In this document: positions 3,263 to 44,363 of the stretch, in pieces
Numbering within the stretch: position 1 is the stretch's first letter
How the letters are laid out: each line of letters begins with the position of its first letter
Virus record (IMG/VR): IMGVR_UViG_3300025141_000048
Source: a virus
Length of the DNA: 64,000 bases
Reading direction: 5' to 3' (one strand)
Notes under the pieces: generated by a model
Database searches by the model: none
What the model was told of the DNA's origin: nothing
What the model saw: only the letters and a program-made list of their open reading frames with translations
Program-made: the position numbers and the translations under genes

Positions 3263-3925
3263 ATGGGTTTGCTCAAGACAATCAAAAACGTTTTCAGGGA
3301 AAAGGCCGAACAAGCCGACAAGGCTCTGGCCGATCCGATCCGTGATGGTAAGTTTGCCATCGAGGATAGCAAGAAACAGATCGCTGAAATGCGCCGGGCT
3401 CTCGCCCAGTTCATGGCGACGAACAAAAAGATGGAAGGCGATCAAGCAGCGGCGAAAGCCGAAGTTGCTAAGTGGCAGAACATCGCTGTCGCAGCGGCCA
3501 AGGATGGCAATGAAGATGCGGCTCGCACGGCTTTGGAAAACAAGGGCCGCAACAAGGATGCCGCTGACAAACTGAAACAGGACATCGAACGCAACAATCG
3601 TGAGATCGAAAAGATCAAGAAACAGATCGATGTTGCGACTCGAAAGATTGCCGATGCGGACAGCAAACATTCGCAGCTTGCCGCCCGAAAGAAAGCGGCA
3701 GACGTTCGAGCCCAACTGTCGGCGGCATCGTCCAAGTTCAGTACCGATGGAGGTGCCTTGGCATCGCTTGACGATTTCGAGAACGAAGTCGAAGCCAAGG
3801 AAAACGAAATCGACGCCATGGAAGAACTCGATGGCGGCGGCGATGAAGACCTTGTCGAACAGTATGGAAAAGGTGCTGGTAAGGTAGATGATGAACTGGC
3901 GGCTTTGATGGCCAAGAGTGGCTGA
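3263..3925 (+). CDS. pspA: PspA/IM30 family phage-shock protein
   Basis: MGLLKTIKNVF...ALADPIRD...; all-helical 220 aa, EDAARTALENK, C-terminal VDDELAALMAK. Confidence 0.9.
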   Translation: MGLLKTIKNVFREKAEQADKALADPIRDGKFAIEDSKKQIAEMRRALAQFMATNKKMEGDQAAAKAEVAKWQNIAVAAAKDGNEDAARTALENKGRNKDAADKLKQDIERNNREIEKIKKQIDVATRKIADADSKHSQLAARKKAADVRAQLSAASSKFSTDGGALASLDDFENEVEAKENEIDAMEELDGGGDEDLVEQYGKGAGKVDDELAALMAKSG

Positions 3926-4010
3926 TGGCCGAAGCGTACCCAAGTAGGGCGGGGGATAAACTTCGGCTTTCCCTCGCCCTCTTGTTTTATACCCAAGAAA
4001 GGGGTTAAGG

Positions 4011-5072
4011 ATGAACTCCCTCGCCCTTTTATTTGTAGCCATTGTTTTTGCGGCCTCTCCTGCCCCGGAAACGCCTTCTGTGACGGTTGGTATCCATCCA
4101 TTTACGCCTTGCGTTATGGTAGGGGCTGATGGGGAAGCAACGGGCTTCGATATTGATATCCTCAACGATTCTATGAAACGTGCTGGAATCGATTACCAGA
4201 CCCGTTCATACGAAACCGTTACCGATCTATTGAACGCTCTTCGCACCGGAGAGATCGATGCGGCAATGGCTGGCTTGTCCATTACATCCAAGCGGGAAAG
4301 AGAGTTTGACTTTACCCAACCCTACTACAAATCAGGATTAAAGATTCTGATTAGCGAGAACGGGGCGACATACAGCTTTTGGAAATTCAAGTATGCTCGC
4401 AACGTCATTAAGGCATTGATCAATCCTGCCGTTGTTGAACCCTTTCTTTGCATGGGGGCATTGATCATTGGATTTGCTTTCCTCATGTGGATGTGTGAAA
4501 AAGGGTCAGATTCAATCAACGATAAATTCTTCCCTGGTATTTTTGAAGCCATCTACTATTCAGTCGTTACCAGTTCGACGGTTGGTTACGGCGACATTAC
4601 TCCCAAGAAATGGGTTGGACGATTCATGGCGGTCTGTTTGATCTTTCTTGGTATCGTCATGTTCGCCAATGCTACCGGCGTATTGAGCGTTGAATACAAT
4701 CAGGACATGCTCGATTTCAAAATCACCGGTCCCCAGGATTTGAAAGATGAGATCGTTTCTACGAAGCAAGGTACTACTTCAATGGATGCGGTCAAGAAAT
4801 GGGAAGCATTGGTTCAGCCGGTTGACGACATCGAAAGGGCATTGGATCTTCTTGAAGCGGGCAAGGTTGCGGCAGTTGTTTTTGATGCTCCAGTCATTGA
4901 TTGGGCATCCAAACAAAGAAGCAGCGTCATCTCCGTTCCGGGGTTGTATGAGCCTCAGAATTATGGTATCGTATTGTCAGAAGGCAGCAGTATGAAAGAG
5001 CCTTTGGACAAAGCTATTTTGTCAATGCAAGAAGATGGAACTTGGAGTAGGATTCATGACCGTTGGTTCTAG
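4011..5072 (+). CDS. GluR0-like ligand-gated K+ channel (split amino-acid binding domain + pore)
   Basis: Signal peptide, PBP type 2 segments (GFDIDIL...SITSKRE...FTQPY; PQNYGIVL), TM-pore-TM with filter TVGYGD. Confidence 0.85.
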   Translation: MNSLALLFVAIVFAASPAPETPSVTVGIHPFTPCVMVGADGEATGFDIDILNDSMKRAGIDYQTRSYETVTDLLNALRTGEIDAAMAGLSITSKREREFDFTQPYYKSGLKILISENGATYSFWKFKYARNVIKALINPAVVEPFLCMGALIIGFAFLMWMCEKGSDSINDKFFPGIFEAIYYSVVTSSTVGYGDITPKKWVGRFMAVCLIFLGIVMFANATGVLSVEYNQDMLDFKITGPQDLKDEIVSTKQGTTSMDAVKKWEALVQPVDDIERALDLLEAGKVAAVVFDAPVIDWASKQRSSVISVPGLYEPQNYGIVLSEGSSMKEPLDKAILSMQEDGTWSRIHDRWF

Positions 5073-5277: not shown

Positions 5278-5913
5278 ATGCCTAAATACCATGACAATGA
5301 GATCAAATTCGAGGCTCGACAAAGAAACGTAGACATCTTTCGAAAGCTGACTGGTCTTTATCCCATTCCTATTGGGCGTCAATACTGGACGCTCTGCAAT
5401 GAACAACCTAAAGGACCCGGTTCTGAGATTGTCCAATTGATTGATTTGGGGCTGTTGACTGTCGATCAATTCCATGGCGTTGACAAAGACGTTAACAAGC
5501 ATGGTAAAGAGAGCGGCATCATTAGACGTAATAGAAAATGGCATCCTAATGCCCATTGGTATCGTGGCGATTGGATAGCAACCATCAAAGAACAAACGAT
5601 GCAGGGGAAATTCAAACCTGCAATGATTTATTTGGATACCACCAGCTTTGCTGATTATCATATCGCCAGCAACATGGTAGGGGCGACCATGATGCGATGC
5701 CCCTCTGGTACGGTACTTTTTGCCAACGTTATGCTCAATGATTCTCACAGCAGTAAAAGATTCGATGAAGAAGCCCTTGTTAGGAATTTAGGGGAACAAA
5801 TCCCTTCATTTGAATTGGACGAATGGGATACTGATGTTCAGACCTTTTCTTACAATGCTTCGGGATTCACAAATATGCTCACTCACGCATTCTTCAAAAG
5901 AGGTAAGTCATGA
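5278..5913 (+). CDS. Hypothetical protein, possibly Rossmann/methyltransferase-like
   Basis: 211 aa, FHGVDKD and MIYLDT strands; leaderless start after a CCATAG promoter. Confidence 0.5.
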   Translation: MPKYHDNEIKFEARQRNVDIFRKLTGLYPIPIGRQYWTLCNEQPKGPGSEIVQLIDLGLLTVDQFHGVDKDVNKHGKESGIIRRNRKWHPNAHWYRGDWIATIKEQTMQGKFKPAMIYLDTTSFADYHIASNMVGATMMRCPSGTVLFANVMLNDSHSSKRFDEEALVRNLGEQIPSFELDEWDTDVQTFSYNASGFTNMLTHAFFKRGKS

Positions 5914-7784
5914 AAGTACAGGCCCACAGTCCAAATGCTCGCAAAATCCAAGAGTTGATCGCTCTCAACCCTCCGTCTGTAATTAAGTTGGGGGCAGAGG
6001 ATCGTAAGTGGCAACCCAAGGCTTATGAGAAATGCAAAGATAGCAGATTCGCTTTTATTATTTCTCCCTGCGGAAGCGGCAAAACACCTGTATTGGTAAA
6101 TGTGGCTGTCTATGGTGTGGTCGAAAGCAAATATACTCAAAAGCAACTGGGGGTTGTCTCCCAGCAGCATTTGTCTGATGGGTTTAGTAATGGTGGCAAA
6201 TACATACAAGCAGAGGTGGAGGGGGAAACATATCAATGGGACATAAAAGAGAATAACTTTTGTGACCCCAATAGCAAGGATGTTCGCCGACGCTTCAAAC
6301 AATGGCTTATCACTCCTGGATATAAACTCGCCTTAGGTTTCAATGGTAAAGTCATATCTGGTCTTAATGCCATTGTCTCTCATCAAACACTTGGCATCGT
6401 ATGGGAACAACTTACTGCTAGTGAAAAGAAAAAGGCAATCAAAAAATTGACGCTGATTATAGACGAGGCCCACCATGTTAAAGGAATCTTTGAAAACACA
6501 GGCAACGGTATGACGGAAGAAGAAAAACAGGATGCCGAAGAGGCATCTAACAATTTAGGTAAAGTATGCCGCTACATCATCAATAGTCGATGTCGTACAT
6601 CTAAAATCCGTCTGGCCACTGCTACTCCATTTCGCACAGAAGGCATTATTATGTGCGACAAAGCGAAAGAAAAGTTTGACATCTTTTATACGGATTGGCT
6701 GGAGCATTGGCATTCATTGGGTATATCTGATTTTGAACTTTCCTATGGCGAATATCGCAATATGCGAGATATGATGCAGCAGATCTACGACAATATAATC
6801 GCTGATGGTCCTGGGCATTGGCATTACATCACGATGCCTCCGACAGGACAGAAGTGGAGAAAGACAGCAAAAGAGACCAAAATCTTCATTCGATTCTTTA
6901 AGAAGCATTTTCCAGGTTTAGTCTTGGACCTTGTGACTCCGTCAACTCAAAAGAGAAACAAAGACATTCTGCTCGATGAACCTAAGCGAGGAAATCCTGG
7001 AGACAAAGAATCGAAATTCAAGATCGTAATTACATGCATGCTTGGGAGAGAAGGTACAGATTGGTGTCCTTGCTCAAGGCTTCATAACACGGCATGCGAG
7101 AACAGTCTTAATTTGGCTACCCAAACTTTGGGACGAACTTTTAGACGTTTCTTTGGTAAGGACAACGTTCATGCTCGCTACTACGTTCCCGAATTCACTA
7201 AGCCTAAAAAAGGCATAACCAAGCGAGAACTCTTTTCGGACAGGACGAATGCCCTGTTGGTTTGCATGCAAGTAGATGAACATTTTCATCCCATCATTAT
7301 GCCTGCTATTCGGTCTAAAGACGATAGCAAGAAACGTGAGAAAAGCGAGTTAAGTATTTTGCTGGGAGAGAGCTATACGGACATTCGCCGAGAAATGATT
7401 GAAGAATGCGAGACGTTGGCTATTCAAGGTAACGCAACCGCCGACTATATCGATTTAGTGATCGATGATATCATCGGAAAGTACAAGATAACGGATCGTA
7501 TCTCTGATGTAAGAGATGGTTTGCGACTCATCTGGCTGAGAGCATTGAAGACAACAGGGGCGACTGTAGCCCCTAAGGATATGGGTATCGATGTAGCCTT
7601 TATTCGAAAGGCCGGATTTGACAAGATTATTGAAGAGCATGGTCTTAGTGGCAGAAGCCTGTTCTTTGCCGAATTTGACGAAAAGGATTGGGACAAGATC
7701 AAAAAGATCGTAAATGAGGGTATTAGTATATGGGATTTCGTCAAGGAATATAATCGAACATATCCATCAGAGGTTGTTTCGTGA
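5910..7784 (+). CDS. SF2 (DExH, Res-subunit-like) helicase
   Basis: Walker A SPCGSGKT, IIDEAHH, ATATP, motif VI QTLGRTFR. Confidence 0.85.
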   Translation: MKVQAHSPNARKIQELIALNPPSVIKLGAEDRKWQPKAYEKCKDSRFAFIISPCGSGKTPVLVNVAVYGVVESKYTQKQLGVVSQQHLSDGFSNGGKYIQAEVEGETYQWDIKENNFCDPNSKDVRRRFKQWLITPGYKLALGFNGKVISGLNAIVSHQTLGIVWEQLTASEKKKAIKKLTLIIDEAHHVKGIFENTGNGMTEEEKQDAEEASNNLGKVCRYIINSRCRTSKIRLATATPFRTEGIIMCDKAKEKFDIFYTDWLEHWHSLGISDFELSYGEYRNMRDMMQQIYDNIIADGPGHWHYITMPPTGQKWRKTAKETKIFIRFFKKHFPGLVLDLVTPSTQKRNKDILLDEPKRGNPGDKESKFKIVITCMLGREGTDWCPCSRLHNTACENSLNLATQTLGRTFRRFFGKDNVHARYYVPEFTKPKKGITKRELFSDRTNALLVCMQVDEHFHPIIMPAIRSKDDSKKREKSELSILLGESYTDIRREMIEECETLAIQGNATADYIDLVIDDIIGKYKITDRISDVRDGLRLIWLRALKTTGATVAPKDMGIDVAFIRKAGFDKIIEEHGLSGRSLFFAEFDEKDWDKIKKIVNEGISIWDFVKEYNRTYPSEVVS

Positions 7785-8794
7785 TTACTAAATCGCAATT
7801 ACATGCCAAGACAGGAACCTTGCGTAAGGCATATGCATCAGGTAGGTTGTCTAAGGTCTATATCAAGATCATCGAAGATGGGATACCTGGATGGCAGTGG
7901 GTGGTAGACCCTACTGCTGAAACCAAAGAATTGTTATTGCAATTGGCTAGATCTAACGAGAGCAAACCCTGTCAACCCACTGAATTAGGTCATCGCTTAA
8001 GTAGATATACCAATGAGAATAGCAACTGTTATGACCCTGTTTTCGATAAGGATATTAGATCTCTTAGGCCCGATTGGTTCATAAATACAGCCGACGAAAA
8101 GAGAAGTCAATTCTTACAAATTGCAAAAACGGGAGGGGCCAAACCCAAAGGGGCATTGGGTAGGAATTTGGCTTCTTATCTCAATGAGAATAGCGAGTGT
8201 TACAATGCAGAATTTGCCAAAGAGATCAAAACAGTTAGACCTGACTGGTTTGCAGATGTAGTAAGTGAAAACAAGAGTGATCTCTTATTAATGGCTGAAC
8301 GACAAGAGAAGCGTCCTCCTAAGGGGTCTCACCCTTTAGGCAAGGTTCTGATTCATTACACTAATCCATCTAGTAAATCTTATGATAAGGATTTTGATAA
8401 TAAAGTGCGTAAATTGGCTCCTCATTGGTTTACAAAATCTGCTGATGAAAGCAAAAAGAAGCTGTTAAAATTAGCACAAGATGGAAAGGAGAAACCCTTC
8501 TGGAAGTCTCGCTTAGGAATGCTGCTTAGAAACTACACTTGTGAGACCAGCAATTCCTATGATCCTGTCTTTGACAAACAGATTAGAAAACTCGCTCCGC
8601 ATTGGTTTGTCAAGACTATTGATAGAAAAAAACAACAACTTATCGAAATGGCTAAGAGAAAAGAGACCAGGCCGAATTATGATAACCATCCTCTAGGACG
8701 GGCTTTATCCAGATACACTAATAAAGGCTACAATACCTACGACCCTGTCTTCGACAAAAAGATCAGAGCATTGGCTCCGCATTGGTTCAGGTAA
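7781..8794 (+). CDS. Helical repeat protein with 5 x ~60 aa repeats (…LG..L..YT…YDPVFDK.IR.LAPHWF)
   Basis: Repeats visible in the translation; N-terminal half helicase-associated (HA)-like segment ending GIPGWQW; GTGA overlap with helicase. Confidence 0.75.
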   Translation: MITKSQLHAKTGTLRKAYASGRLSKVYIKIIEDGIPGWQWVVDPTAETKELLLQLARSNESKPCQPTELGHRLSRYTNENSNCYDPVFDKDIRSLRPDWFINTADEKRSQFLQIAKTGGAKPKGALGRNLASYLNENSECYNAEFAKEIKTVRPDWFADVVSENKSDLLLMAERQEKRPPKGSHPLGKVLIHYTNPSSKSYDKDFDNKVRKLAPHWFTKSADESKKKLLKLAQDGKEKPFWKSRLGMLLRNYTCETSNSYDPVFDKQIRKLAPHWFVKTIDRKKQQLIEMAKRKETRPNYDNHPLGRALSRYTNKGYNTYDPVFDKKIRALAPHWFR

Positions 8795-9873
8795 TGGCTA
8801 AACTGACTTATCAACAATTGCATAGCAAGGCATCCAGTCTGCGACGGGCGTATGCAGCAAGTAGTTTATCTAAACGTGATATCAAGGCTATAGAAAAGGG
8901 CATACCGGGTTGGAAGTGGGATTTAGAAGATCCGGAAGACCATGCTCTTGATATGACAGGGAAAGTAGCTGAATTCTATCACAAATACGGGAAATATCCG
9001 TCTCATGGTTCTAAAGATCCTAAAGGAAAGAAACTTGGCACATGGTTAAAGACACAAAGACGATCCAAGGCGGATAAAGGATATGGTATTTTCTATCCTT
9101 CATGTGAAAGGTTGGCTAAACAACTCGGATGTCCTGATATGTTTGAACAAGTTGGGACTAAAGATGTCAGAGAATTATATGCCCTTAAAATGACAAGAAA
9201 ATCATGCGAGTTTTATCACAGACATGGGAAATATCCTAGCCACGTAAGCAGAGATCCGGAGGTGAAAAAACTCGGAAGATGGATGCATCAACGTAGACAA
9301 GCAAAAAAAGGGAAAGGGACGGGATCCTTACATCATTCAAGTTCGTGTGAAAATTTGGCTAAGGAGCTTGGCTGTGCCGGTATATTTGACAATATTGATT
9401 TGGAAGCTAAATCTCTTGAGATGACAAGAAAAATATCTGAGTTCTATCACAAACATGGAAGATATCCGTCTGGAAAATCTAAAGATCCTGAAGAAAAGAA
9501 ACTTGGACAATGGTTAGGGCAGTATAGGAATGCTAAACAGGGTAAGGGGCATCGTATTTTCTATCCTTCATGTGAAAAGTTGGCCAAACAACTCGGATGC
9601 TCCGACATGTTTGCACTTTCACGAACCTCAGAAGCAAGAGAATCTCATGCTCTTGAGATGACAAGAAAATCATGCGAGTTTTATCACAGACATGGGAAAT
9701 ATCCGTCTAACAAATCTAAAGATCCTGAAGAAAAAAAGCTTGGAGGATGGTTGAGTAATATGAGAAAAACCAAACAAGGTAAGGGGCATCATATTTTTTA
9801 TCCTTCATGTAAAAAGTTAGCTAAGAAACTCGGATGTCCCGATATGTTCAAACCCCAAAGGAGATCGTCATGA
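8794..9873 (+). CDS. Helicase-associated (HA)-like repeat protein, 4 repeats
   Basis: 4 x EFYHKHGKYPS..SKDPEEKKLG.W...R; N-terminus homologous to that of the preceding ORF. Confidence 0.75.
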   Translation: MAKLTYQQLHSKASSLRRAYAASSLSKRDIKAIEKGIPGWKWDLEDPEDHALDMTGKVAEFYHKYGKYPSHGSKDPKGKKLGTWLKTQRRSKADKGYGIFYPSCERLAKQLGCPDMFEQVGTKDVRELYALKMTRKSCEFYHRHGKYPSHVSRDPEVKKLGRWMHQRRQAKKGKGTGSLHHSSSCENLAKELGCAGIFDNIDLEAKSLEMTRKISEFYHKHGRYPSGKSKDPEEKKLGQWLGQYRNAKQGKGHRIFYPSCEKLAKQLGCSDMFALSRTSEARESHALEMTRKSCEFYHRHGKYPSNKSKDPEEKKLGGWLSNMRKTKQGKGHHIFYPSCKKLAKKLGCPDMFKPQRRSS

Positions 9874-10013
9874 CAACGCAAGCTGCACTCAAGGCATGGG
9901 AAACTCGTCGCCAAAACCAGGCCAAACGAAGCGAAGCCGCTAAGAAGGCGTGGAAGACAAGGAAGGCTAGGGCCAGAGCCCGCAAGGCGTGGGAAACAAG
10001 AAGAGCCGCCTAA
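9870..10013 (+). CDS. 47 aa basic peptide with 3 x KAW(E/K)TR repeat (below ORF-track cutoff)
   Basis: MTTQAALKAWETRRQNQAKRSEAAKKAWKTRKARARARKAWETRRAA; SD AAGGAG; ATGA overlap. Confidence 0.6.
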   Translation: MTTQAALKAWETRRQNQAKRSEAAKKAWKTRKARARARKAWETRRAA

Positions 10014-10148: not shown

Positions 10149-10835
10149 ATGGCGAGATTTAACGAACACTTCTTTGACAAAATAGACAATGAACTAAAGG
10201 CATATTGGTTAGGGTTTATATGGGCAGACGGTTCTATCACTTGCAATAATGGCACTTATTCATTTGCCATACATTTACAAGACAGAGATCATTATCATCT
10301 TGATATCTTGGATAGAGATTTATCTTATGAAGGCAGCCGTAACGGAGGTAAGTATTCGTGGTTCTCTAAATATATGATTGGAAGAATAATGCATTTGGGT
10401 CTCGTGCCAGATAAAAGTCATAACGAAGTTTCAATTCCACGCATGCCTAAGCGTCTTATTCATCATTTTTGGCGAGGAGTTTTTGATGGGGACGGCATGA
10501 TAACCACAAGATCTAAAAAATGTCTTGATGATTTTAGATTCTCAATTTGTGGTACTCACACTACTGTGACGTCATTCAGCGAATGGATGTTGAAGTTTGG
10601 TATCAAAAAACAAAAGATTGCTAAAGCAAAAAATCAATATGGCGAAACACATGCATGGAAATTTGAGGTGGGAGGAAATCGACAAGTAGCAGCATTAATG
10701 AGTCAGTTATACCATCGATCTACTCGATATCTTCTTCGTAAATATAAGATTGCTTGCGAATTGCATACAATAAACGGTGAAATAAGCCCCTCTTTTAAGC
10801 GTAAGTATATTGACAAACCATTCAAAATACGGTAG
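10149..10835 (+). CDS. Free-standing two-motif LAGLIDADG homing endonuclease
   Basis: AYWLGFIWADGSI and FWRGVFDGDGMI; C-terminal LLRKY. Confidence 0.9.
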   Translation: MARFNEHFFDKIDNELKAYWLGFIWADGSITCNNGTYSFAIHLQDRDHYHLDILDRDLSYEGSRNGGKYSWFSKYMIGRIMHLGLVPDKSHNEVSIPRMPKRLIHHFWRGVFDGDGMITTRSKKCLDDFRFSICGTHTTVTSFSEWMLKFGIKKQKIAKAKNQYGETHAWKFEVGGNRQVAALMSQLYHRSTRYLLRKYKIACELHTINGEISPSFKRKYIDKPFKIR

Positions 10836-10846: not shown

Positions 10847-12265
10847 ATGAATGGGAACGATATTATTTCTCTCGGATTCGGGCCGGGACCGGTCGTAGGT
10901 ATCGCCCTGTCCGCTGCCAATCTGTCTTCGGAGAGAGGCAGGCGAGATAAGGATATCAAGCTTACCTTGTCGGCTTTGAAAGAGAAGCCCAAGGACTTTC
11001 TGCATGATGAAATCTTTGGGGAGTTGGCTCAAGCTTTGGCTAAGCAAACTGTTGATGATGAAAAACTTAAGAAGATGCTTGAAGACACTAAGCCTAAACC
11101 TTTTAAGATCTGGGGCGAAGAGGGTATCGGTAATAACGCTATAGAACAGATGCATACAGCCATGCAACTTCCCTTTGCGGTTAAGGGGGCTTTGATGGCG
11201 GATTCACATCTTGGCTACGGTCTGCCAATCGGGGGAGTTATCGCTTGTGATAATGTTGTTGTACCTAATTTTGTCGGAGTTGATATCGCATGCCGGGTTA
11301 AGCTGACTATTCTCGACATGCCCGCAAAAGAACTGGCTGGCATGAAAGATAAGTTCAAGAATGCTTTGCTGAGAGAAACCAAATTCGGCAAGGGAGTTGA
11401 ATTCACAAGAAGCGGTCGTCATAATCACGGAGTTATGGATGACCCTCTTTGGGATAAGATTGAACTCCTTAGGAATGGGAAAAACAAGGCTCATAACCAA
11501 CTCGGGACCAGTGGAAGCGGGAATCATTTTGTCGATATCGGAACCATAAAAGTATTTGACGAAGAACTGGGAGAAGGCGAATATGTTGCCATTCTAAGCC
11601 ATAGTGGTAGTCGTGGCATTGGCCATAAGGTAGCTTCTCATTACCATAAGCTGGCTATCTCTTTGATGCCCAAACAGTTTAATCACATTGCAGCATTCCG
11701 TAACTTGGCATGGTTGAGTTTGGACACGGATGAAGGTCAAGAGTATTGGGAAGCCATGAACCTCATGGGACGCTATGCCTCTGCCAACCATGCTCTGATC
11801 CATGAAAGCATCATCCGAAACATCGGCGTCAATGCCATGTCAACGGTTGAGAACCATCATAATTATTCTTGGCTTGAAGAGCATGATGGTAAGGACTATA
11901 TCGTGCATCGTAAGGGAGCAACGCCTGCTGCTATTGGAGAAGTTGGGGTAATTCCTGGAACGATGGCTGACTCTTGCTTTGTTGTTAGGGGCAAGGGTAA
12001 CGCTGAATCTCTGTGTTCTTCTTCTCATGGGGCGGGACGCCAGATGTCTCGTACCGATGCAAAGAACAGCTTTACATGGAGCGAATGGAAGAGGGTTCTG
12101 GAAGAGAAGGGCATTGAGTTGATCTCTGCCGGATTGGATGAAGTGCCTGGAGCATACAAGGACATTCATGAGGTCATGGCAGCACAGGTCGATCTTGTCG
12201 ATCCTATTGCCGAATTTTCTCCTAAGATTGTTCGTATGGCAGATGATGGAACGGCGGAGGATTAA
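10847..12265 (+). CDS. rtcB: RtcB RNA-splicing/repair ligase
   Basis: ADSHLGYGLPIGG, GVDIACR, GSGNHF, NHHNY, HRKGAT, PGTM, SHGAGR, DEVPGAYK. Confidence 0.95.
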   Translation: MNGNDIISLGFGPGPVVGIALSAANLSSERGRRDKDIKLTLSALKEKPKDFLHDEIFGELAQALAKQTVDDEKLKKMLEDTKPKPFKIWGEEGIGNNAIEQMHTAMQLPFAVKGALMADSHLGYGLPIGGVIACDNVVVPNFVGVDIACRVKLTILDMPAKELAGMKDKFKNALLRETKFGKGVEFTRSGRHNHGVMDDPLWDKIELLRNGKNKAHNQLGTSGSGNHFVDIGTIKVFDEELGEGEYVAILSHSGSRGIGHKVASHYHKLAISLMPKQFNHIAAFRNLAWLSLDTDEGQEYWEAMNLMGRYASANHALIHESIIRNIGVNAMSTVENHHNYSWLEEHDGKDYIVHRKGATPAAIGEVGVIPGTMADSCFVVRGKGNAESLCSSSHGAGRQMSRTDAKNSFTWSEWKRVLEEKGIELISAGLDEVPGAYKDIHEVMAAQVDLVDPIAEFSPKIVRMADDGTAED

Positions 12266-12266
12266 T

Positions 12267-13142
12267 ATGGACGCACAACCGATCTTCTTGTTTGAAAAGG
12301 ATACCTTCGACGAAGGTAATCCTGAAAAGATGATGACCATAGCCCAAGACAAGGGGTGTGAAGCCTATTGGTTCGACTACGTTCCATTGGGTGGAGGTCT
12401 TGTTTTGCCCAAACAGGTACAAGACAAGCTGGAAAGTGAAGAGCGTATTTGCAGTGTATTCTATGGTACACTGAACATGACCAGATATGTCAAAGGATCG
12501 CAATTCATTCCTGGAGTATGGGAAGACGATCATGCTTTGTCTTGTTCAACTTACTACTCCCATTGGAGTAGACACATGCTCAATCAGAGGTATGGCATCT
12601 ACTCTATTGGCGAAATTGGCAACAAGAAGGATTGGTTGTTCTTTATGTTTGGGGACAAAACTAATAACCCCCAAGTTTTGATCAGACCCAATGCAAATAC
12701 AAAATCATTCCATGGTGGGTTGGTAACTTTCAACAAGTTCGAACAATGGTTCGAGACTGCACTGTTCTATGACAACGATCCGTCTCAATTGGCTGTTGTC
12801 GCTACGCCGTCTATTATCTATCAAGAATTCAGAGTTGTCATTTATGACGGCAAGGCTATCGCTTCCAGCGAGTACAAAAACCGAACCCCGTCAGTAGATC
12901 CTGTTACTCCTGATGTGGCTGCTGAAAAAGCGGAGAAGCTTATCAAGATTCATGAATGGCAGCCTGATCGTCTTTTTGTTCTTGATATCGCTAGGACTCC
13001 AGAAGTTGATGGTCTGTTTGCTGGATGGAAGATCATTGAATGCGGAAGCATCAATTGTTGTGGTTTGTATAAATGCGAATTGGAACCCATAGTAGATGCT
13101 ATGGCAGATTTGGCGGTACAAGATTTCAAAGGATATGAATAA
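12267..13142 (+). CDS. ATP-grasp domain protein (DUF4343/R2K-like)
   Basis: LIRP...KSFHG, EFRVVIYDGK, FVLDIA, KIIEC..INCCGLY. Confidence 0.7.
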   Translation: MDAQPIFLFEKDTFDEGNPEKMMTIAQDKGCEAYWFDYVPLGGGLVLPKQVQDKLESEERICSVFYGTLNMTRYVKGSQFIPGVWEDDHALSCSTYYSHWSRHMLNQRYGIYSIGEIGNKKDWLFFMFGDKTNNPQVLIRPNANTKSFHGGLVTFNKFEQWFETALFYDNDPSQLAVVATPSIIYQEFRVVIYDGKAIASSEYKNRTPSVDPVTPDVAAEKAEKLIKIHEWQPDRLFVLDIARTPEVDGLFAGWKIIECGSINCCGLYKCELEPIVDAMADLAVQDFKGYE

Positions 13143-13933: not shown

Positions 13934-14316
13934 GGGGCCGCTTGGTATCGACTGGATAAGTTGAGTTGCTAAGCTGCATGCAGTGGTTGGTCGAACGGCC
14001 ACTTAAAAATTCGACTAAAAAACAAATGCCGACAATGGCATCGCTGGCAGCATCGGCCCACAGGCCGATCTCGCCCTGGCTGCTTAGATCAGCCAGCGTT
14101 TCAGGTCGCCCGCTCCTGCGGGGCGTCTGAGGCGAACGAATAGCAGGATCGTCCGTAGCTTGGAAGCCCATCCAATCTACAGGGTTAAATCTAAACGGGC
14201 TGGCAGGGCTTGAGGCTGTCTCTGGTCGCCTCCCTGTAAGATTAAAACAGAGGATAAGCATGTAGAGGCTGGTGGTTTGCTATCTCAGGACGAGAGTTCG
14301 AATCTCTCCGGCTCCA
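13934..14316 (+). ncRNA. ssrA: tmRNA; tag (A)ADNGIAGSIGPQADLALAA at 14028-14087
   Basis: 5' GGGGCCG pairs with 3' CGGCTCC-A (G3-U70), T-loop TTCGAAT, resume context AAAAAACAAAT-GCC, tag ends LALAA*. Confidence 0.92.
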
Positions 14317-38281: not shown

Positions 38282-38367
38282 TCCACAGTACCCGAGTGGT
38301 AGCAGGGGGCGGACTGTTAATCCGTTAGGCGTAAGCCTCGTCGTTGGTTCGAATCCAACCTGTGGAG
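38282..38367 (+). tRNA. tRNA-Asn(GUU) with long variable arm
   Basis: TCCACAG/CTGTGGA-G; loop CTGTTAA; V-arm AGGC-GTAA-GCCT. Confidence 0.9.
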
Positions 38368-38437
38368 TTAAAAGAAGGAGATCTCAAACTTCGTTGGAAA
38401 GTTAACAAGACATGTTAATTATCTAACGGAGATCGAG

Positions 38438-38986
38438 ATGATCCAGAAGTCAGAAAAGGTAAAGAAATGGCGTAAAGAAACGAAGAAACGTATTGTCGAG
38501 TCCATGGGAGGCGGATGCGTATGTTGCGGATACACACGATGCTTGAGAGCATTGGATCTGCATCACCTGGATCCTGAGGAAAAGGAATTTGGATTTGGCA
38601 GGATAATGGCGAATCCCATACGATGGGAAAAGATCGTCGAAGAATTGAGGAAATGTGTTCTTGTATGCAAGCGATGTCATGCCGAAATCCATGATGGGAT
38701 TCTAAAGATCCCGGAAAATGCGACCAGGTTTGATGAATCGTTTACCACGTACAAGAACCAAAAGAAAGAAGCTTGTCCGGTATGCGGGAATGATAAACCG
38801 CTGCATCTGATTACTTGTTCGAAGTCGTGTGCAGCAAAGAGGGCAGGTAAAGTCAATTGGGATGCAATTGACTTGAAAGGATTGTTGAAAGAAAAGACCA
38901 GCATCGTAAAGATAGCTGAACGGATAGGGGTTTCAGATACCTCTGTTTACAAACGAATGAGGAAATTGGGACTGGAACGCTGTTAA
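38438..38986 (+). CDS. HNH homing endonuclease with C-terminal HTH
   Basis: GGGCVCCGY…ALDLHHLDP…KCVLVCKRCHAEIH. Confidence 0.9.
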   Translation: MIQKSEKVKKWRKETKKRIVESMGGGCVCCGYTRCLRALDLHHLDPEEKEFGFGRIMANPIRWEKIVEELRKCVLVCKRCHAEIHDGILKIPENATRFDESFTTYKNQKKEACPVCGNDKPLHLITCSKSCAAKRAGKVNWDAIDLKGLLKEKTSIVKIAERIGVSDTSVYKRMRKLGLERC

Positions 38987-39022
38987 CCAAGAAAGATGCT
39001 GGTTCGAATCCAGTCCTTGGAA
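38980..39022 (+). pseudogene. 3' half of a tRNA-Asn(GUU)
   Basis: CTGTTAA-CCAAG…GCTGG-TTCGAAT-CCAGT-CCTTGGA; overlaps the HNH stop. Confidence 0.75.
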
Positions 39023-39092
39023 TTAGGAGTTGAGTCATGCGTTATGACAGTTCAGAAGTTCGATACAAACCGAGTTCATATCTTTGAGGTAT

Positions 39093-39178
39093 GGATCGGT
39101 AGTCAAGCGGTTGAAGACATCGGACTTTTAATCCGTCAGGCGTAAGCCTCATCGCAGGTTCGAATCCTGTCCGGTCCA
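39093..39178 (+). tRNA. tRNA-Lys(UUU) with long variable arm
   Basis: GGATCGG/CCGGTCC-A; loop CTTTTAA; V-arm AGGC-GTAA-GCCT. Confidence 0.88.
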
Positions 39179-39211
39179 CTTTGGATTCCGGCTCTTTGAT
39201 AAGTAAAGATT

Positions 39212-39241
39212 CTCCATAGACGCCGTGAGGCGTGATATAAT
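39212..39241 (+). promoter_or_regulatory. CCATAG-class promoter 6/28
   Basis: CTCCATAG-ACGCCGTGAGGCG-TGATATAAT. Confidence 0.8.
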
Positions 39242-39345
39242 GGCCTGTCGTCCATCGATAAGGGACGTAACTTAGATCCCCAGCAGTGTAACGACTGCCC
39301 GAATAGCGGGTTCTTCATATCTGGTAGGTAAAGCCAGACGAATTG

Positions 39346-39374
39346 TTGACAATGTAGTCAACAGATGGTACATT
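39346..39374 (+). promoter_or_regulatory. Sigma-70 promoter overlapped by inverted repeat TGTTGAC-N6-GTCAACA
   Basis: TTGACA-17-TACATT with TG. Confidence 0.6.
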
Positions 39375-39393
39375 GGTCGTAAAGGAGACATCC

Positions 39394-39753
39394 ATGTCAA
39401 CTCAGATTCTGGAATATGTCAAAAATCGCAAGGGCAATCGTGTTGGCGTTTTCGTCGCTGCCGTTCAGGCGGACGAAACTGTTCAGATCGGCTGGTCGAA
39501 ATGCCATGGGACCAAAGACAAATGGAACCGTGAGCGAGGAATCGACATTGCTACTCGTCGAGCGAAGAGTGGTTCGATGGTTCCTATGCCCCTTATGATC
39601 GAAGACAAGGTCGAGGGTTTCTTGGAACGTGCTCGGCGATATTTCAAAGGTCGAGAGATTGTCAAGACCTTTGTTACTCAAGCAGAGGCTGCTGAGTTAG
39701 CGGCAGCTACTGACGTTACTGCCGTCATCGAACATGAGTTGAAACAGGGCTAA
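39394..39753 (+). CDS. Hypothetical phage protein
   Basis: IGWSKCH..D.WNRERGIDIA..RA; SD AAGGAG. Confidence 0.7.
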   Translation: MSTQILEYVKNRKGNRVGVFVAAVQADETVQIGWSKCHGTKDKWNRERGIDIATRRAKSGSMVPMPLMIEDKVEGFLERARRYFKGREIVKTFVTQAEAAELAAATDVTAVIEHELKQG

Positions 39754-40026
39754 CATCGACAAGGAGAGTCATGATTGATGAACTTTTGCTTATACTACAA
39801 TGTGCATCCGGCATTTTCGGAATTATAAGCACTGTCATCTCATTTGGTGGTGAAGAAGAAGCTAGTCGAGCAGCAAATTCTTGCTGGCTGGGCTTCATCG
39901 GTTTCACCTTGTGCCGAATTTTGACAGCAATGCCATAACTGGATCATGGACATCAGAGGATAGCGAGAAGTTTATGCCGCACGGTATGGGAGCCGAGATG
40001 TCTGTGATCTTGTTTCCTTTCTCATT

Positions 40027-40100
40027 GGTCTCGTAGTTCAGCCTGGTAGAACAACGCACTTTTAATGCGTGGGTCGAAGGTTCGAATCCTTCCGGGACCA
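40027..40100 (+). tRNA. tRNA-Lys(UUU), canonical
   Basis: GGTCTCG/CGGGACC-A; ACGCA-CTTTTAA-TGCGT. Confidence 0.92.
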
Positions 40101-40110
40101 CTTATCACAT

Positions 40111-40183
40111 ACCACCGTAGCTCAATTGGCAGAGCATCGCATTCCAAATGCGGCGGTTAGGGGTTCGAGTCCTCTCGGTGGTG
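40111..40183 (+). tRNA. tRNA-Trp(CCA)
   Basis: ACCACCG/CGGTGGT-G; loop TTCCAAA. Confidence 0.92.
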
Positions 40184-40188
40184 CTTTT

Positions 40189-40263
40189 GCACTCGTAGCT
40201 CAGTCTGGACAGAGCAATTGCCTTCGAAGCAAAAGGTCGTAGGTTCGAATCCTACCGGGTGTA
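40189..40263 (+). tRNA. tRNA-Arg(UCG)
   Basis: GCACTCG/CGGGTGT-A; loop CTTCGAA. Confidence 0.9.
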
Positions 40264-40266
40264 CTT

Positions 40267-40295
40267 TTCCATAGCTGCCAAATTTCTGATATAAT
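40267..40295 (+). promoter_or_regulatory. CCATAG-class promoter 7/28
   Basis: TTCCATAG-CTGCCAAATTTC-TGATATAAT. Confidence 0.8.
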
Positions 40296-40301
40296 GGTAG
40301 T

Positions 40302-40805
40302 ATGAACCTCTCAGACGATCAAATCAAAGCTGTCAACAAAACCGCAACGAATTCGAGTCGTTTCGTCGATCAAGCAGTTATCCCGAAACTCGTTGAAGAG
40401 ATGGCCAACACCGATTGGCGGATCCTCGACTATGGATCCGGACCCAAAGCTCTGCATGTCCATCGTCTTCGAGATCTTGGGTTCAATGTTGTTGCACACG
40501 ACTTTGGCAACAATGTTACCACCGAACACGATCCCAAAGCACTGACTCGAACGTATGACTTAGTCTATGCTTCGAGCGTCATTAATGTTCAGATCTCTCA
40601 TGAGATGTTAAGATCTACGCTCGTCGAGATCTCAACTCTTTTGGATCCAGGCGGAGTCTTCTTGTTCAACCTGCCTAAGGAGCCTCAGAAGATTGATTTT
40701 GACATTCAGGATCTGATCTTGACGTTGTCAGAAATCTTCGGTGATGACATCGATTACAAGAAGCGGAATTCGTCTTGGATCTTTACGGTAACGAAAGGGA
40801 CATGA
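40302..40805 (+). CDS. Class I SAM-dependent methyltransferase
   Basis: ILDYGSGP, YDLVYASSVINV; leaderless. Confidence 0.8.
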   Translation: MNLSDDQIKAVNKTATNSSRFVDQAVIPKLVEEMANTDWRILDYGSGPKALHVHRLRDLGFNVVAHDFGNNVTTEHDPKALTRTYDLVYASSVINVQISHEMLRSTLVEISTLLDPGGVFLFNLPKEPQKIDFDIQDLILTLSEIFGDDIDYKKRNSSWIFTVTKGT

Positions 40806-41156
40806 TGGAATTTGTCGGTGAGAAAAACATGACGGAGATGGGATGTCCGCCTATGGATCCTCCATGTAAATGCGGATCCTCACTGTCTCATGACTCCAGT
40901 ACTCATCAGTGTAAGACAGAGTTATTCAAACCCTGTCCACACTGTGGTAGTCGTTTGTTATACTGGGGACATCATGATTCTGAACTGCTTTGCAGTTGAG
41001 TGTCATAATTGTGGATGTGTAGGACCTCGAATCAGTTACGACAGTGCTGAGAGGTTAGGGCTTCCTGTTGAGATCCGGTATGATGAGCTTGCAGATCTTG
41101 ACGGCAAGTTACTTGATTTTGCGATTGAGGCGTGGAATCAAAGAGAGCACCAGTAG
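40802..41156 (+). CDS. Lar-like (restriction alleviation) Zn-ribbon gene split by a +1 frameshift near 40988
   Basis: FKPCPHCG in one frame, VECHNCGCVGP…AIEAWNQR in the next. Confidence 0.55.
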
Positions 41157-41220
41157 CTCAATTGGACAGAGCACGGCACTACGGATGCCGAGGTTTCAGG
41201 TTCGAGTCCTGGTTGGTGTA
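41147..41220 (+). tRNA. tRNA-Arg(ACG)
   Basis: GCACCAG/TTGGTGT-A; CGGCA-CTACGGA-TGCCG. Confidence 0.92.
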
Positions 41221-41222
41221 TT

Positions 41223-41447
41223 ATGTTAATAGTTTCTGAAGTACCATATCCTCCCATATGTGAACTGTGTGGATCTCAAGATACACGACATGTTGCAGAT
41301 CTCGAAGACGGGATCTTGCAGAATTGTTGGTGGCGTTGTTTGGGATGTCAGATGGAATATGGCATTGATCCGGATCCCAAAAAAACGTATGTGGATCCAC
41401 GTACGGGGAAATGGGTTGTGACGTTATCATTTCGTCGTAAGTTCTAA
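41223..41447 (+). CDS. Small zinc-ribbon protein
   Basis: CELCG…CLGC. Confidence 0.5.
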   Translation: MLIVSEVPYPPICELCGSQDTRHVADLEDGILQNCWWRCLGCQMEYGIDPDPKKTYVDPRTGKWVVTLSFRRKF

Positions 41448-41455
41448 GTCTTTTA

Positions 41456-41552
41456 CCGCCGGTAGTTTAATTGGTAAAACCCCAAATTTATAATTTGGTA
41501 AAACGCCTCGCTGATTACGGGGTAAGTCCTGGTTCGAGTCCAGGTCGGCGGA
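41456..41552 (+). tRNA. 97 nt tRNA-Ile with two anticodon arms (UAU at 41489-91, GAU at 41513-15)
   Basis: CCGCCGG/TCGGCGG-A; CCAAA-TTTATAA-TTTGG and CCTCG-CTGATTA-CGGGG; intact D and T arms. Confidence 0.8.
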
Positions 41553-41554
41553 TT

Positions 41555-41583
41555 CTCCATAGCCGGAAAATTCCTGATATAAT
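41555..41583 (+). promoter_or_regulatory. CCATAG-class promoter 8/28
   Basis: CTCCATAG-CCGGAAAATTCC-TGATATAAT. Confidence 0.8.
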
Positions 41584-41604
41584 CCGGCTGAAAGGAAGAT
41601 ACCT

Positions 41605-41823
41605 ATGAGGCAGCAAATCATTACTGAGAATAGGGCAGATCGTTTCGAAGACAAAGTTAACCAACTGATGAATGATGGTTGGATGGCGGTCCCCGCAACC
41701 CATGTCGTGGCCAAGGATAACGATTCTATCTTTGGCTACTTCGCTATCGTCCTTGAGAAAAAAAAGATGGGTAACACCGGAAAGTTGCGGACTCCGCCGA
41801 TTTACAACTGGTTGTCACCATGA
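41605..41823 (+). CDS. DUF1737-like small protein
   Basis: FEDKVNQLMNDGW; SD GAAAGGAAG. Confidence 0.6.
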   Translation: MRQQIITENRADRFEDKVNQLMNDGWMAVPATHVVAKDNDSIFGYFAIVLEKKKMGNTGKLRTPPIYNWLSP

Positions 41824-42002
41824 ATCTACGGTGTATGATGTCAACGGACAGAACATCTGCATTGCCAATTGTTTGACGCTGAAGCCGAAAGAAGAGGGTT
41901 TGCGACAAATCATTTTCTGGCCCAGCGGGCGGATTACATATGATTGGCAACATGAAGGTACAATTCTCTTGTAATCGTCGAAGATGACGATACAATGCAT
42001 AT

Positions 42003-42030
42003 GGGGCTATAGCTCAATTTTGGGAGAGCA
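42003..42030 (+). pseudogene. 5' half of a tRNA-Ala
   Basis: GGGGCTATAGCTCAATTTTGGGAGAGCA, ending at the anticodon stem. Confidence 0.75.
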
Positions 42031-42105
42031 TTGGGAAGCCGCTGCTAAGATCGTGGCTTGGGTTCGTTTGGAGAACGGGATTAGAATCACCGAGTATCAT
42101 GTGTT

Positions 42106-42519
42106 ATGAGGTTGATGAATCTGGAAACTGAAGAGGTGATTCTGATACGGGTTATTTCTCAGGAAAAGGATGGTATCTGGGGTCACATTGTGGCTTCGAA
42201 TGGCACCGTGGATCGTCAACCTGAGTTCTTTCCGATCATTGAATGGAGAGAGTTTACTGTGATTGGCCTTGGAGAGCAATCTTCTCGGTTTAAGGCGAAA
42301 AGAGAGCAAGCAGTTACATACAAAGGTGGGAAGTGCGAACGTTGTAACTACGACAGATGTATGCAGGCATTAGAATTTCATCATCCAGATCCATCATCTA
42401 AGGATCCAGATTACAGCAGAATCAAATCATGGTCATGGGATAGGGTGAAGAAAGAGATTGACAAATGCATATTGCTTTGTAGTATTTGTCATCGAGAAAA
42501 ACATGCGGGGATATGGTAA
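42106..42519 (+). CDS. HNH homing endonuclease
   Basis: YKGGKCERCNY…ALEFHHPDP…KCILLCSICHREKH. Confidence 0.9.
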   Translation: MRLMNLETEEVILIRVISQEKDGIWGHIVASNGTVDRQPEFFPIIEWREFTVIGLGEQSSRFKAKREQAVTYKGGKCERCNYDRCMQALEFHHPDPSSKDPDYSRIKSWSWDRVKKEIDKCILLCSICHREKHAGIW

Positions 42520-42578
42520 AATTGGGATCACATCGCCTTTGCACGGCGGAATTCGGGGTTCGAGTCCCCGTATCTCCA
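42507..42578 (+). tRNA. tRNA-Ala(UGC), diverged; overlaps the HNH stop
   Basis: GGGGATA/TATCTCC-A (G3-U70); loop TTTGCAC. Confidence 0.88.
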
Positions 42579-42583
42579 CTTAA

Positions 42584-42654
42584 GCTCCTGAGGTGTTACG
42601 GTAGCACGTCGGACTGTCGATCCGAAAGCCGGGGTTCGACTCCCCGTAGGGGCG
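42584..42654 (+). tRNA. tRNA-Asp(GUC)
   Basis: GCTCCTG/TAGGGGC-G; TCGGA-CTGTCGA-TCCGA. Confidence 0.88.
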
Positions 42655-42655
42655 T

Positions 42656-42690
42656 TTCCGAAGGTTGGGGGTTCGAGTCCCCTGGTGGCG
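42656..42690 (+). pseudogene. Orphan tRNA 3' half (isotype unknown)
   Basis: AGGTT-GGGGG-TTCGAGT-CCCCT-GGTGGCG. Confidence 0.6.
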
Positions 42691-42745
42691 TTGAAATAAA
42701 AACGGTGTGCAAATGGTATACGCAAGACAGTAGGGCAAATAATAT

Positions 42746-42818
42746 GGGGCAGTAGCTCAATTGGGAGAGCATCTCGTTCGCAACGAGAAGGTTGAGGGTT
42801 CGAGTCCCTTCTGCTCCA
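42746..42818 (+). tRNA. tRNA-Ala(CGC)
   Basis: GGGGCAG/CTGCTCC-A; loop TTCGCAA. Confidence 0.92.
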
Positions 42819-42825
42819 CTTGTAT

Positions 42826-42898
42826 GGGGCCATAGCTCAGTTGGGAGAGCGTCTCACTGGCAGTGAGAAAGTCGCAGGTTCGAGTCCTGTTGGCTCCA
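42826..42898 (+). tRNA. tRNA-Ala(GGC)
   Basis: GGGGCCA/TGGCTCC-A; loop CTGGCAG. Confidence 0.92.
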
Positions 42899-42904
42899 CT
42901 TTAA

Positions 42905-42979
42905 GCGCCTGTAGCTCAGTATGGACAGAGCACACCCCTGATAAGGGTGGGGTCGTAGGTTCAAATCCTACTAGGCGCA
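42905..42979 (+). tRNA. tRNA-Ile(GAU)
   Basis: GCGCCTG/TAGGCGC-A; CACCC-CTGATAA-GGGTG. Confidence 0.92.
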
Positions 42980-43098
42980 TTATGGAAAAAGACATATGGC
43001 AATATCGTAGTAATCTTGCAGGATGGGTCGTCATTTCTGTAAGTTTTGCAGCTTGGTTAGCGGTACATGCTCCAGGCAAGGTCCGTTTGTGTTGTTAA

Positions 43099-43135
43099 GC
43101 CTCCGTAGCTCAATTGGTAGAGCATTCCGCTTACG
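43099..43135 (+). pseudogene. 5' half of a tRNA-Val(UAC)
   Basis: GCCTCCG-TA-GCTC…GAGC-A-TTCCG-CTTACG, then unrelated sequence. Confidence 0.7.
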
Positions 43136-43205
43136 TTCTGGACTTGGTTGTCTGCGTTGTGGATTACTGGTATAGTCCATGGCAGTTCTAGTAGTAGTTC
43201 TTAAC

Positions 43206-43278
43206 GCCAAGTAGCTCAGTTTAATTTGGAAGAGCGGTGGAGTGAAATCCCACAGGTCGCAGGTGGGAGACCTTGGTA
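43206..43278 (+). pseudogene. Degenerate tRNA-Phe(GAA), damaged T arm
   Basis: Anticodon arm GTGGA-GTGAAAT-CCCAC; T loop missing. Confidence 0.6.
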
Positions 43279-43338
43279 GAAGAAGCGAAGAAATGCAGCC
43301 TCTTGTGTTGTCGATGTCATAGAGAAATAGAGAACGAA

Positions 43339-43411
43339 GGCTAGTAAGCTAATCTGGTGAAAGCGTCCGCCTGAAGAGTGGAAGAGCCCGGCTCGAAACC
43401 GGGACTAGCCA
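43339..43411 (+). tRNA. tRNA-Phe(GAA)
   Basis: GGCTAGT/ACTAGCC-A; loop CTGAAGA; T loop CTCGAAA. Confidence 0.88.
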
Positions 43412-43508
43412 CTTAACATACGTGTATCGGGGTTACTCCCTTACAACTGCCAGGCATGTCCCTGTTGCGTATGTTTAACAGAGAGAAGGCAGCCTCTTTC
43501 TCTGTTAT

Positions 43509-43582
43509 GCCACCGTAGCTCAATCTGGTAGAGCGGCTCCCTTGTAAGGAGCGGGTTGGGGGTTCGATTCCTCTCGGTGGCC
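43509..43582 (+). tRNA. tRNA-Thr(UGU)
   Basis: GCCACCG/CGGTGGC; loop CTTGTAA. Confidence 0.9.
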
Positions 43583-43587
43583 CTTTT

Positions 43588-43660
43588 GTCCCCCTGGTGT
43601 TAAATGGCAACATCACTCTTTCGTAATGAGTGGCTATCGGTTCGAATCCGGTGGGGGACT
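43588..43660 (+). tRNA. tRNA-Thr(CGU)
   Basis: GTCCCCC/GGGGGAC-T; loop TTCGTAA. Confidence 0.88.
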
Positions 43661-43666
43661 TTACAT

Positions 43667-43739
43667 GCTGCCGTACATCAGTTGGAAGATGGCCTCCTTG
43701 GTAAGGAGGATGTCGTGGGTTCGAGCCCCACCGGTAGCT
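43667..43739 (+). tRNA. tRNA-Thr(GGU)
   Basis: GCTGCCG/CGGTAGC-T; loop TTGGTAA. Confidence 0.9.
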
Positions 43740-43750
43740 TTCAGATTTTT

Positions 43751-43779
43751 CTCCATAGCCAAAATCTAGCTGATATAAT
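43751..43779 (+). promoter_or_regulatory. CCATAG-class promoter 9/28
   Basis: CTCCATAG-CCAAAATCTAGC-TGATATAAT. Confidence 0.8.
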
Positions 43780-43784
43780 GAGAC

Positions 43785-43994
43785 ATGAAACCGAATCGAA
43801 TCAAACTTGCAATTGACTTAACCGTCCTTGTCTTGAGTCTTTTCCTCATGTTTGGCGTTGGACGTTTGAGTAACTGGGGACCCAACGTTAGCGACATTCC
43901 GTTATGGGGATGGATCTCTATGGGGCCGGGGGTGGCGGGATGGATCTGGCTCTGCAATGAACGGTGCAAAATTGATTGGCAAGGTTTTCCATAA
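43785..43994 (+). CDS. Small membrane protein
   Basis: 2 TM helices; leaderless after a CCATAG promoter. Confidence 0.6.
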   Translation: MKPNRIKLAIDLTVLVLSLFLMFGVGRLSNWGPNVSDIPLWGWISMGPGVAGWIWLCNERCKIDWQGFP

Positions 43995-44357: not shown

Positions 44358-44363
44358 AACATC

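Follow-up and report, generated by a model that had tools for sequence, protein, structure and literature searches.

We analyzed a 64,000-nucleotide stretch of viral DNA (IMG/VR record IMGVR_UViG_3300025141_000048), referred to here as the window, which carries a helicase gene followed by two open reading frames (ORFs) for repeat proteins, ORF2 and ORF3. All three genes lie on the plus strand. The helicase (5910–7784) is 624 residues long and its C-terminus reads ...IWDFVKEYNRTYPSEVVS. Its tail (7710–7781; residues 601–624, VNEGISIWDFVKEYNRTYPSEVVS) is the proposed first helix of a split helicase-associated (HA) domain. ORF2 (7781–8794) encodes 337 residues, with an N-terminal leader (7781–7903; residues 1–41) and five repeats of 57–60 residues (7904–8788). 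ORF3 (8794–9873) encodes 359 residues from its ATG codon and has a leader (8794–8925; residues 1–44) followed by four HA repeats of 73–81 residues (8926–9849). Each successive gene of the module sits in the –1 frame relative to the previous one, and their stop and start codons overlap. At the GTGA of positions 7781–7784, the helicase stop codon TGA (7782–7784) overlaps the GTG start codon of ORF2, and the ORF2 Shine-Dalgarno sequence, GAGG (7770–7773), is found 7 nt upstream of this junction. At the TAATG of positions 8792–8796, the ORF2 stop codon TAA (8792–8794) shares its final base with the ORF3 ATG. ORF3 most likely starts at ATG 8794 rather than at TTG 8782, because gene callers chose ATG 8794 in three other assemblies. 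A first-pass annotation made from the sequence alone had described a helicase with two downstream partners, overlapping gene junctions, a homologous N-terminal segment of about 40 residues on both partners and different repeat arrays behind it. All of these features were confirmed; the two leaders are 48% identical over approximately 40 residues, and the bodies behind them belong to different repeat families.

The helicase is a superfamily 2 (SF2) enzyme of the ResIII/DEAH type, with a Walker A motif, a DEAH box, motif VI arginines and two RecA-like domains. It matches Pfam ResIII with 24.1 bits (cut-off 22.5) and PHROG 16, "DNA helicase". GSGK at residues 55–58 (G55, G57 and K58), DEAHH at residues 185–189 (D185, E186 and H188) and the Q405/G408/R409/R412 set are invariant in 35 homologues. 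The two RecA-like domains occupy approximately residues 30–430, and a helical C-terminal region spans residues 480–606. The AlphaFold2 (AF2) model has a confident core, and a Foldseek search with this model returned many SF2 helicases at a probability of 1.0, though these were generic matches only, with template-modeling (TM) scores of 0.31–0.41. Searches of PDB sequences with the helicase, with ORF3 and with a profile of the ORF3 repeats gave no significant match. The helicase family comprises 124 clusters at E ≤ 1e-30. Within the 35 homologues, a further group of conserved residues lies at positions 376–392 (approximately 7035–7085, within GREGTDWCPCSRLHN), where C376, W385 and C388 are invariant and C386 and H392 are nearly so. 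Judging from this pattern, the second RecA domain may contain a metal-binding knuckle in this segment.

We examined 14 related loci in which the partners are separate genes (Tunturiibacter phage Tunturi_5 and 13 loci from IMG/VR and public assemblies), as well as several loci that are fused or uninformative. The layout is conserved in many huge phages, with modular variation. The helicase is followed by one to three partner genes in L003, L006, L007, L010, L013, L014, L016 and L020–L023, and the partners lie upstream of the helicase in L004 and L008. Within any one locus, all partners share one leader. Tunturi_5 (308 kb) was the only match among deposited phage genomes, and a blastn search of the region against phage genomes found none. 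This phage (PP885688.1) has the same three-gene layout, with gp100 encoding a helicase 37% identical to that of the window, followed by gp99 and gp98, which both carry the same leader. It differs in the bodies of its partners, which consist of a third repeat type (EWV..AE.LA..NGG.LP...PE.F.HI). All three proteins are annotated as "DNA helicase" in the deposited record, which mentions neither a split domain nor a shared leader. The first-pass annotation had recommended checking whether homologues are fused, and fused homologues do exist: the arrays are joined to the helicase in L002, L005 (P0031), P0016, P0214, P0261 and others, and unsplit cis forms were also found.

The split between the genes is real. 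Apart from the adjacency of the ORFs, we found nothing to suggest that an assembly or sequencing indel has artificially broken one long ORF. The 4,736-nt module is present in ENA ERZ27249081, JGI 3300002514 and Logan SRR5251701 with 100%, 99.98% and 100% identity, respectively, and 0 gaps, and the DNA of both junctions is identical across these three independent assemblies from other samples. Moreover, the genome of a cultured phage and 13 further loci share the split. An indel at the junction, an artifact that the first-pass annotation had named as a way to refute its reading, is excluded for practical purposes because the junction DNA is identical in three independent assemblies.

The same annotation had proposed frameshifted fusion products as an alternative. 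Programmed –1 frameshifting would generate helicase–ORF2 (and ORF2–ORF3) fusions, and the domain would then be completed in cis on some ribosomes. The –1 offset between successive genes and the overlap of their stop and start codons are in keeping with this mechanism, as is the existence of relatives with fused forms. However, we found no slippery heptamer of the form X XXY YYZ before the helicase–ORF2 overlap (...TCA GAG GTT GTT TCG TGA), and the partners have their own start codons, preceded in ORF2 by the GAGG Shine-Dalgarno sequence. The geometry of the junction also varies by locus, from a 2-nt gap to overlaps of 4 nt and 11 nt. Finally, partners that are encoded upstream of the helicase, as in L004 and L008, are at odds with frameshifting, and second and third partners could never be fused to the helicase by this route. 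Because of the missing heptamer, the independent starts, the variable geometry and the position of these partners, frameshift fusion is very unlikely as a general explanation and can effectively be set aside.

We built a hidden Markov model (HMM) exclusively from eleven class-A leaders of relatives and searched 1,123 six-frame ORFs. The model found the ORF3 leader (E 9e-8) and the ORF2 leader (E 2e-6), together with Tunturi gp99 and gp98. Because a model made only from relatives finds both leaders of the window and the next unrelated ORF scores only E ≥ 0.69, the homology of the leaders is more than chance. Behind the leaders, the ORF3 repeats are bona fide HA repeats (Pfam PF03457), with 63.7 bits against a cut-off of 28.4 over four stretches. 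The ORF2 repeats match PHROG 13199 and have no Pfam family, and HA was not listed for them at E ≤ 0.1. An hhalign comparison aligned the ORF2 repeats with ORF3-type repeats in register but weakly (P 0.013), and the nearest clusters to ORF2 by ESM features were HA-domain proteins (0.87), which serves as a lead only. ORF2 has 141 homologues at E ≤ 1e-5. A leader of at least 15 residues precedes the first repeat in 86 of 120 ORF2-type proteins, and these leaders fall into the same classes as the leaders and helicase tails of the examined loci.

Four such classes, A to D, could be distinguished. Class-A helicases contain a conserved ...FFGxYxxKDWxxIRxI block followed by a tail of 20–34 residues, usually with W-[DE]-x-x-[FY], a motif seen repeatedly throughout the family, and class-A leaders are 28–47 residues long. 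The class-A leader precedes at least four body types, namely the ORF2 type, HA repeats, the Tunturi type and the type found in L020. The L020 partner (3746–4864) joins a class-A leader to a body (REWISMETLSSIAKTHGF...) with a faint INT_rpt match; because this is a fourth body type, the same class-A leader serves at least four cargo families.

The class-A leaders of relatives are C-terminal fragments of an HA domain. The Pfam HA profile has 64 positions and a gathering cut-off of 28.4 bits, and all 11 of these leaders match it only at positions ~25–63, such that the first ~25 positions are never covered. Two of the 11 exceed the gathering score, with 29.0 and 35.0 bits. In L013, whose helicase is 45% identical to that of the window, the leader by itself reaches 21.4 bits, with a match to HA positions 29–62. 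When the L013 tail is joined to this leader, the score rises to 31.0 bits, above the gathering cut-off, and the match extends over positions 4–62. The joined tail and leader of L006 also give an HA match across the join (E 0.014, profile positions 30–62). For the window, we compared the tail (IWDFVKEYNRTYPSE) with an HMM of ORF3-type HA repeats. The tail aligns to helix 1 and "YPS", and it outscored 197–199 of 200 shuffled tails. AF2 predicts a helix at helicase residues 607–617 with a predicted local distance difference test (pLDDT) score below 50–60; this low confidence is consistent with an unpaired or unpacked element, but proves nothing. MAFFT alignments were excluded from these comparisons because they misaligned helicase tails onto leaders.

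Class B shows the reverse partition, with a tail of 44–49 residues and a leader of 18–23 residues (MLKKWQISALESIEGWDEF). The class-B helicase clade includes L003, L006–L008, L021, L022 and many entries with P identifiers, and its tail has the pattern W.E.V..IK.IG..N......LY.F...QR..Y.... The lengths of tail and leader add up to 58–77 residues, and mostly to 62–67 (window, L013, L014 and L006–L008), compared with 64 for the HA profile. By these sequence lengths, there are two split points with complementary pieces. Tail class and leader class agree in 15 of the 15 loci for which both could be determined (six A, six B, two C and one D). In addition, the unsplit helicases P0041, P0223, P0268 and P0338 have the leader directly behind the tail within a single polypeptide (leader HMM E 2.6e-9 to 4.7e-6). 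The best helicase matches of a class-B leader HMM were to the helix-3 part of these cis leaders (E 0.013 and 0.022); class-B leaders have no Pfam HA match.

The remaining classes look different. Helicases of L010 and L023 (~750 residues) have a C-terminal extension of ~117 residues ending in ...LN.I.PKGY.FF.K.SK..., and the partners of this clade all begin with M(I)SNI.S.Y.S.C.LF.F. Judging by sequence, this clade (classes C/C2) seems to have another docking pair, one that is not of the HA type.

Several results weigh against a split HA domain whose parts dock. First, the window itself contributes little signal: neither of its leaders has a direct Pfam match, a concatenation of its tail and leader gets no Pfam HA match, and the helix-1 score of its tail is only 0.6–0.8 bits, although this beats 98.5–99.5% of shuffles. 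Because this signal is weak, the main grounds for assigning helix 1 in the window are homology with relatives and the split-point and length arguments. Comparisons by hhalign of the junction or leader with the repeat profiles were in register but weak (P 0.03–0.15; 0.03–0.04 for the junction against repeat units). Second, the relatives are not uniform. The L014 tail adds no extension to the HA match of its leader, class C and D leaders show no HA likeness, and the perfect pairing of classes does not amount to 15 independent events, because the loci are phylogenetically related. The links to class B and to the cis forms rest on family-internal profiles, because Pfam HA finds neither class-B tails alone nor the natural cis forms. 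Third, in an AF2 model of the cis-fused P0041 (residues 565–740), the leader has pLDDT values of 74–90, and the helix-1 region only 45–52. VIA-align found no informative PDB match for this model, with nothing above Z 2.4 and that for the downstream repeat only; a region search with P0041 residues 575–740 found only P0041 itself. Lastly, a leader is missing from 34 of the 120 ORF2-type proteins (~28%), but many of those 34 are truncated calls that start mid-repeat on short contigs. The first-pass annotation had claimed that the helicase ends with the first helix of an HA repeat and that the rest of the domain is found on the partners. The comparative part of this claim holds up well, in that leaders of relatives are C-terminal HA fragments, the L013 tail completes an HA match, the split points are complementary and cis forms exist. 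For the window, the Pfam-silent junction and the faint score of the tail leave the claim suggestive.

Some of these observations would also be expected if the domain were a fission remnant without any docking function. A helicase-[HA]n protein would have broken in its first repeat, leaving ends that are inert or disordered, and the repeat proteins would be free DNA- or RNA-binders that are merely co-expressed with the helicase. The window junction is unseen by Pfam, a sizable minority of ORF2-type proteins have no leader, and leaderless repeat proteins adjoin the module in L013 (10018–10440) and L014 (9516–9671), all of which fit such a remnant. An inert remnant is expected to decay or vanish, however, whereas every paralogue has kept its leader, even where the body types are unrelated, and the leaders co-vary with the helicase tail in all of the loci that were classed. 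There are also two independent split positions, and in both cases the pieces still sum to approximately one domain. We therefore consider a non-functional remnant unlikely, while granting it some weight.

The coupled gene chain is longer than the first-pass annotation had stated, with one additional gene at either end. Upstream, a gene for a protein of 211 residues (5278–5913, plus strand) overlaps the helicase start by 4 nt at an ATGA. This protein has no Pfam or PHROG match. The ESM Atlas model of the exact protein resembles clusters of class I S-adenosylmethionine (SAM)-dependent methyltransferases (TM 0.62–0.68), and the protein is putatively class I SAM-methyltransferase-like, an assignment by predicted fold only. 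Its homologues lie directly beside the helicase in L002, L003, L005, L006, L007, L009, L010, L011 and L015, and genes for 199–247 residues occupy the equivalent position in L013, L014, L016, L021, L022 and L023, where they were identified by position only. The protein carries the motif YWTLCN...SEI.QL...GL...QFHGVD, and most of the examined loci have its gene next to that of the helicase. Downstream, an ORF for 47 residues (9870–10013, plus strand) with three KAWETRR-type repeats overlaps the ORF3 stop codon at an ATGA and is preceded by an AAAGGAG Shine-Dalgarno sequence. It was called as a 47-residue gene in L017 and is probably a further member of the module. Small basic ORFs with two or three copies of KAW(E/K/D)TR(R/K) adjoin the module not only in the window but also in L002 (8117–8278), directly after the fused helicase, and in L013 (5093–5365).

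These neighbors raise the possibility that the leader is a docking or oligomerization tag for another target, such as the methyltransferase-fold protein, the KAWETRR protein, another surface of the helicase or a second partner protein. The methyltransferase-fold gene is as conserved a neighbor as the partners are, the KAWETRR ORF recurs, and class C and D leaders are without HA likeness. Yet the cis forms place the leader straight after the helicase tail, the tail and leader of L013 together make a full-length HA match, and the complementarity in length is specific to tail and leader. A target other than the tail accordingly seems distinctly improbable to us.

We favor, with moderate confidence, a model in which an HA domain was split by gene fission and its parts dock in trans. 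In this model, the module is a conserved operon of huge phages, encoding the methyltransferase-fold protein, the SF2 helicase, two repeat-array proteins and the KAWETRR protein with overlapping stops and starts. The last domain of the helicase would be a three-helix HA domain of the PF03457 type. Helix 1 would remain on the helicase, as its last ~24 residues, and each partner would start with helices 2 and 3 (the leader of ~40 residues). Behind the leader, ORF3 would present HA repeats and ORF2 HA-sized repeats of another family. Most likely, the tail and the leader of a partner fold together into one HA-like bundle. Through this bundle, the motor would hold a repeat array in trans, in the same architecture that relatives achieve by fusion in cis. 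Because ORF2 and ORF3 share one leader and the helicase has a single tail, the two proteins would be alternative and perhaps mutually exclusive subunits of the same motor, in line with the swappable specificity that the first-pass annotation had inferred. The arrays may bind nucleic acid; this suggestion is based on the title of a paper on the structure of an HA domain (Mills 2013, J Struct Funct Genomics 14:19), as listed in PMC12191111, according to which the domain binds DNA.

In a more far-reaching version of this model, the split HA domain would work like a plug-in socket, through which a single helicase accepts alternative nucleic-acid-contacting arrays by complementation of the three-helix bundle; the array gene that is expressed or acquired would set the target. 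The domain would have been split at least twice, once behind helix 1 and once behind helix 2, and the half-domains would act as portable, orthogonal docking tags. Taken as a whole, this version is speculative and we think it rather unlikely.

The closest known proteins are SF2 helicases with HA repeats fused in cis (PF03457, "Helicase associated domain"), which combine the same kind of motor with arrays of three-helix HA domains of ~64 residues. ORF3 likewise has four bona fide HA repeats, and fused relatives of the window helicase exist. A solved example of the domain is BVU_0683(627–691), according to the citation of Mills 2013 in PMC12191111. In the window module, by contrast, separate polypeptides carry the arrays, and the cut between helicase and partner appears to run through the first HA domain. 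It also differs in having several partner genes that share one half-domain, and in the ORF2 array, which is not detectably HA by Pfam. We regard the module as an HA-repeat helicase that is split inside a domain and has several partner genes.

Type I restriction-modification systems (HsdR, the exchangeable HsdS and HsdM) similarly co-encode an SF2 motor, a methyltransferase-fold protein and variable subunits built from repeats. This likeness is an analogy only, because neither a nuclease domain nor any homology to HsdM or HsdS was detected in the module; moreover, the methyltransferase of the window is assigned by fold only. Docking in the window module would use domain complementation rather than the coiled coils of HsdS. 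The module can also be likened, again by analogy, to split-protein fragment complementation, as its HA-like fold would be formed from two polypeptides. Split inteins, the docking domains of polyketide synthases and nonribosomal peptide synthetases, and donor-strand complementation all complete a fold from two polypeptides and achieve specific non-covalent assembly. We know of no description of a split three-helix HA domain that docks subunits, nor of one in which several paralogous donors serve a single acceptor.

The window belongs to a huge phage. The helicase is found on a contig of 338 kb, and its relatives are on contigs of 183–640 kb. The window carries a tmRNA gene (tag ADNGIAGSIGPQADLALAA) and an array of ~10 kb with 19 tRNA genes, at 13934–14316 and 38282–47729; such a set is typical for huge phages. 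Downstream of the module, a 12-bp inverted repeat (10055–10066/10102–10113) lies just before a gene for a free-standing LAGLIDADG homing endonuclease (10149–10835; PHROG 4645, 3.5e-34). This gene is directly upstream of a gene for the RNA ligase RtcB (10847–12265; Pfam 2.4e-86), which is followed by one for an R2K-type ATP-grasp protein (12138–13142; PF14243/PF18299 in the L017 gene table, PHROG 7313). Upstream of the module, 3263–3925 and 4011–5072 encode a PspA/IM30 homologue and a protein that joins an SBP_bac_3/Lig_chan ligand-binding domain to an Ion_trans_2 pore; by its domain composition, the latter is a predicted GluR0-like channel. The Pfam matches for these two proteins were taken from the gene tables of the identical loci L017–L019.

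Partner proteins of this kind are now labeled "DNA helicase" or "hypothetical", and the present analysis corrects that annotation. HA domains are widespread yet almost uncharacterized appendages of helicases, and these findings offer a testable role for them, as cargo in the arrays and as connector in the split domain. If docking occurs as proposed, the module would offer a naturally occurring example of subunits being exchanged through complementation between fragments of a three-helix bundle, and orthogonal docking pairs could be drawn from its several co-evolved classes of tail and leader. A methyltransferase-fold protein, a helicase and variable arrays would then also make up a defined, conserved module of huge phages, in a family of at least 124 clusters.

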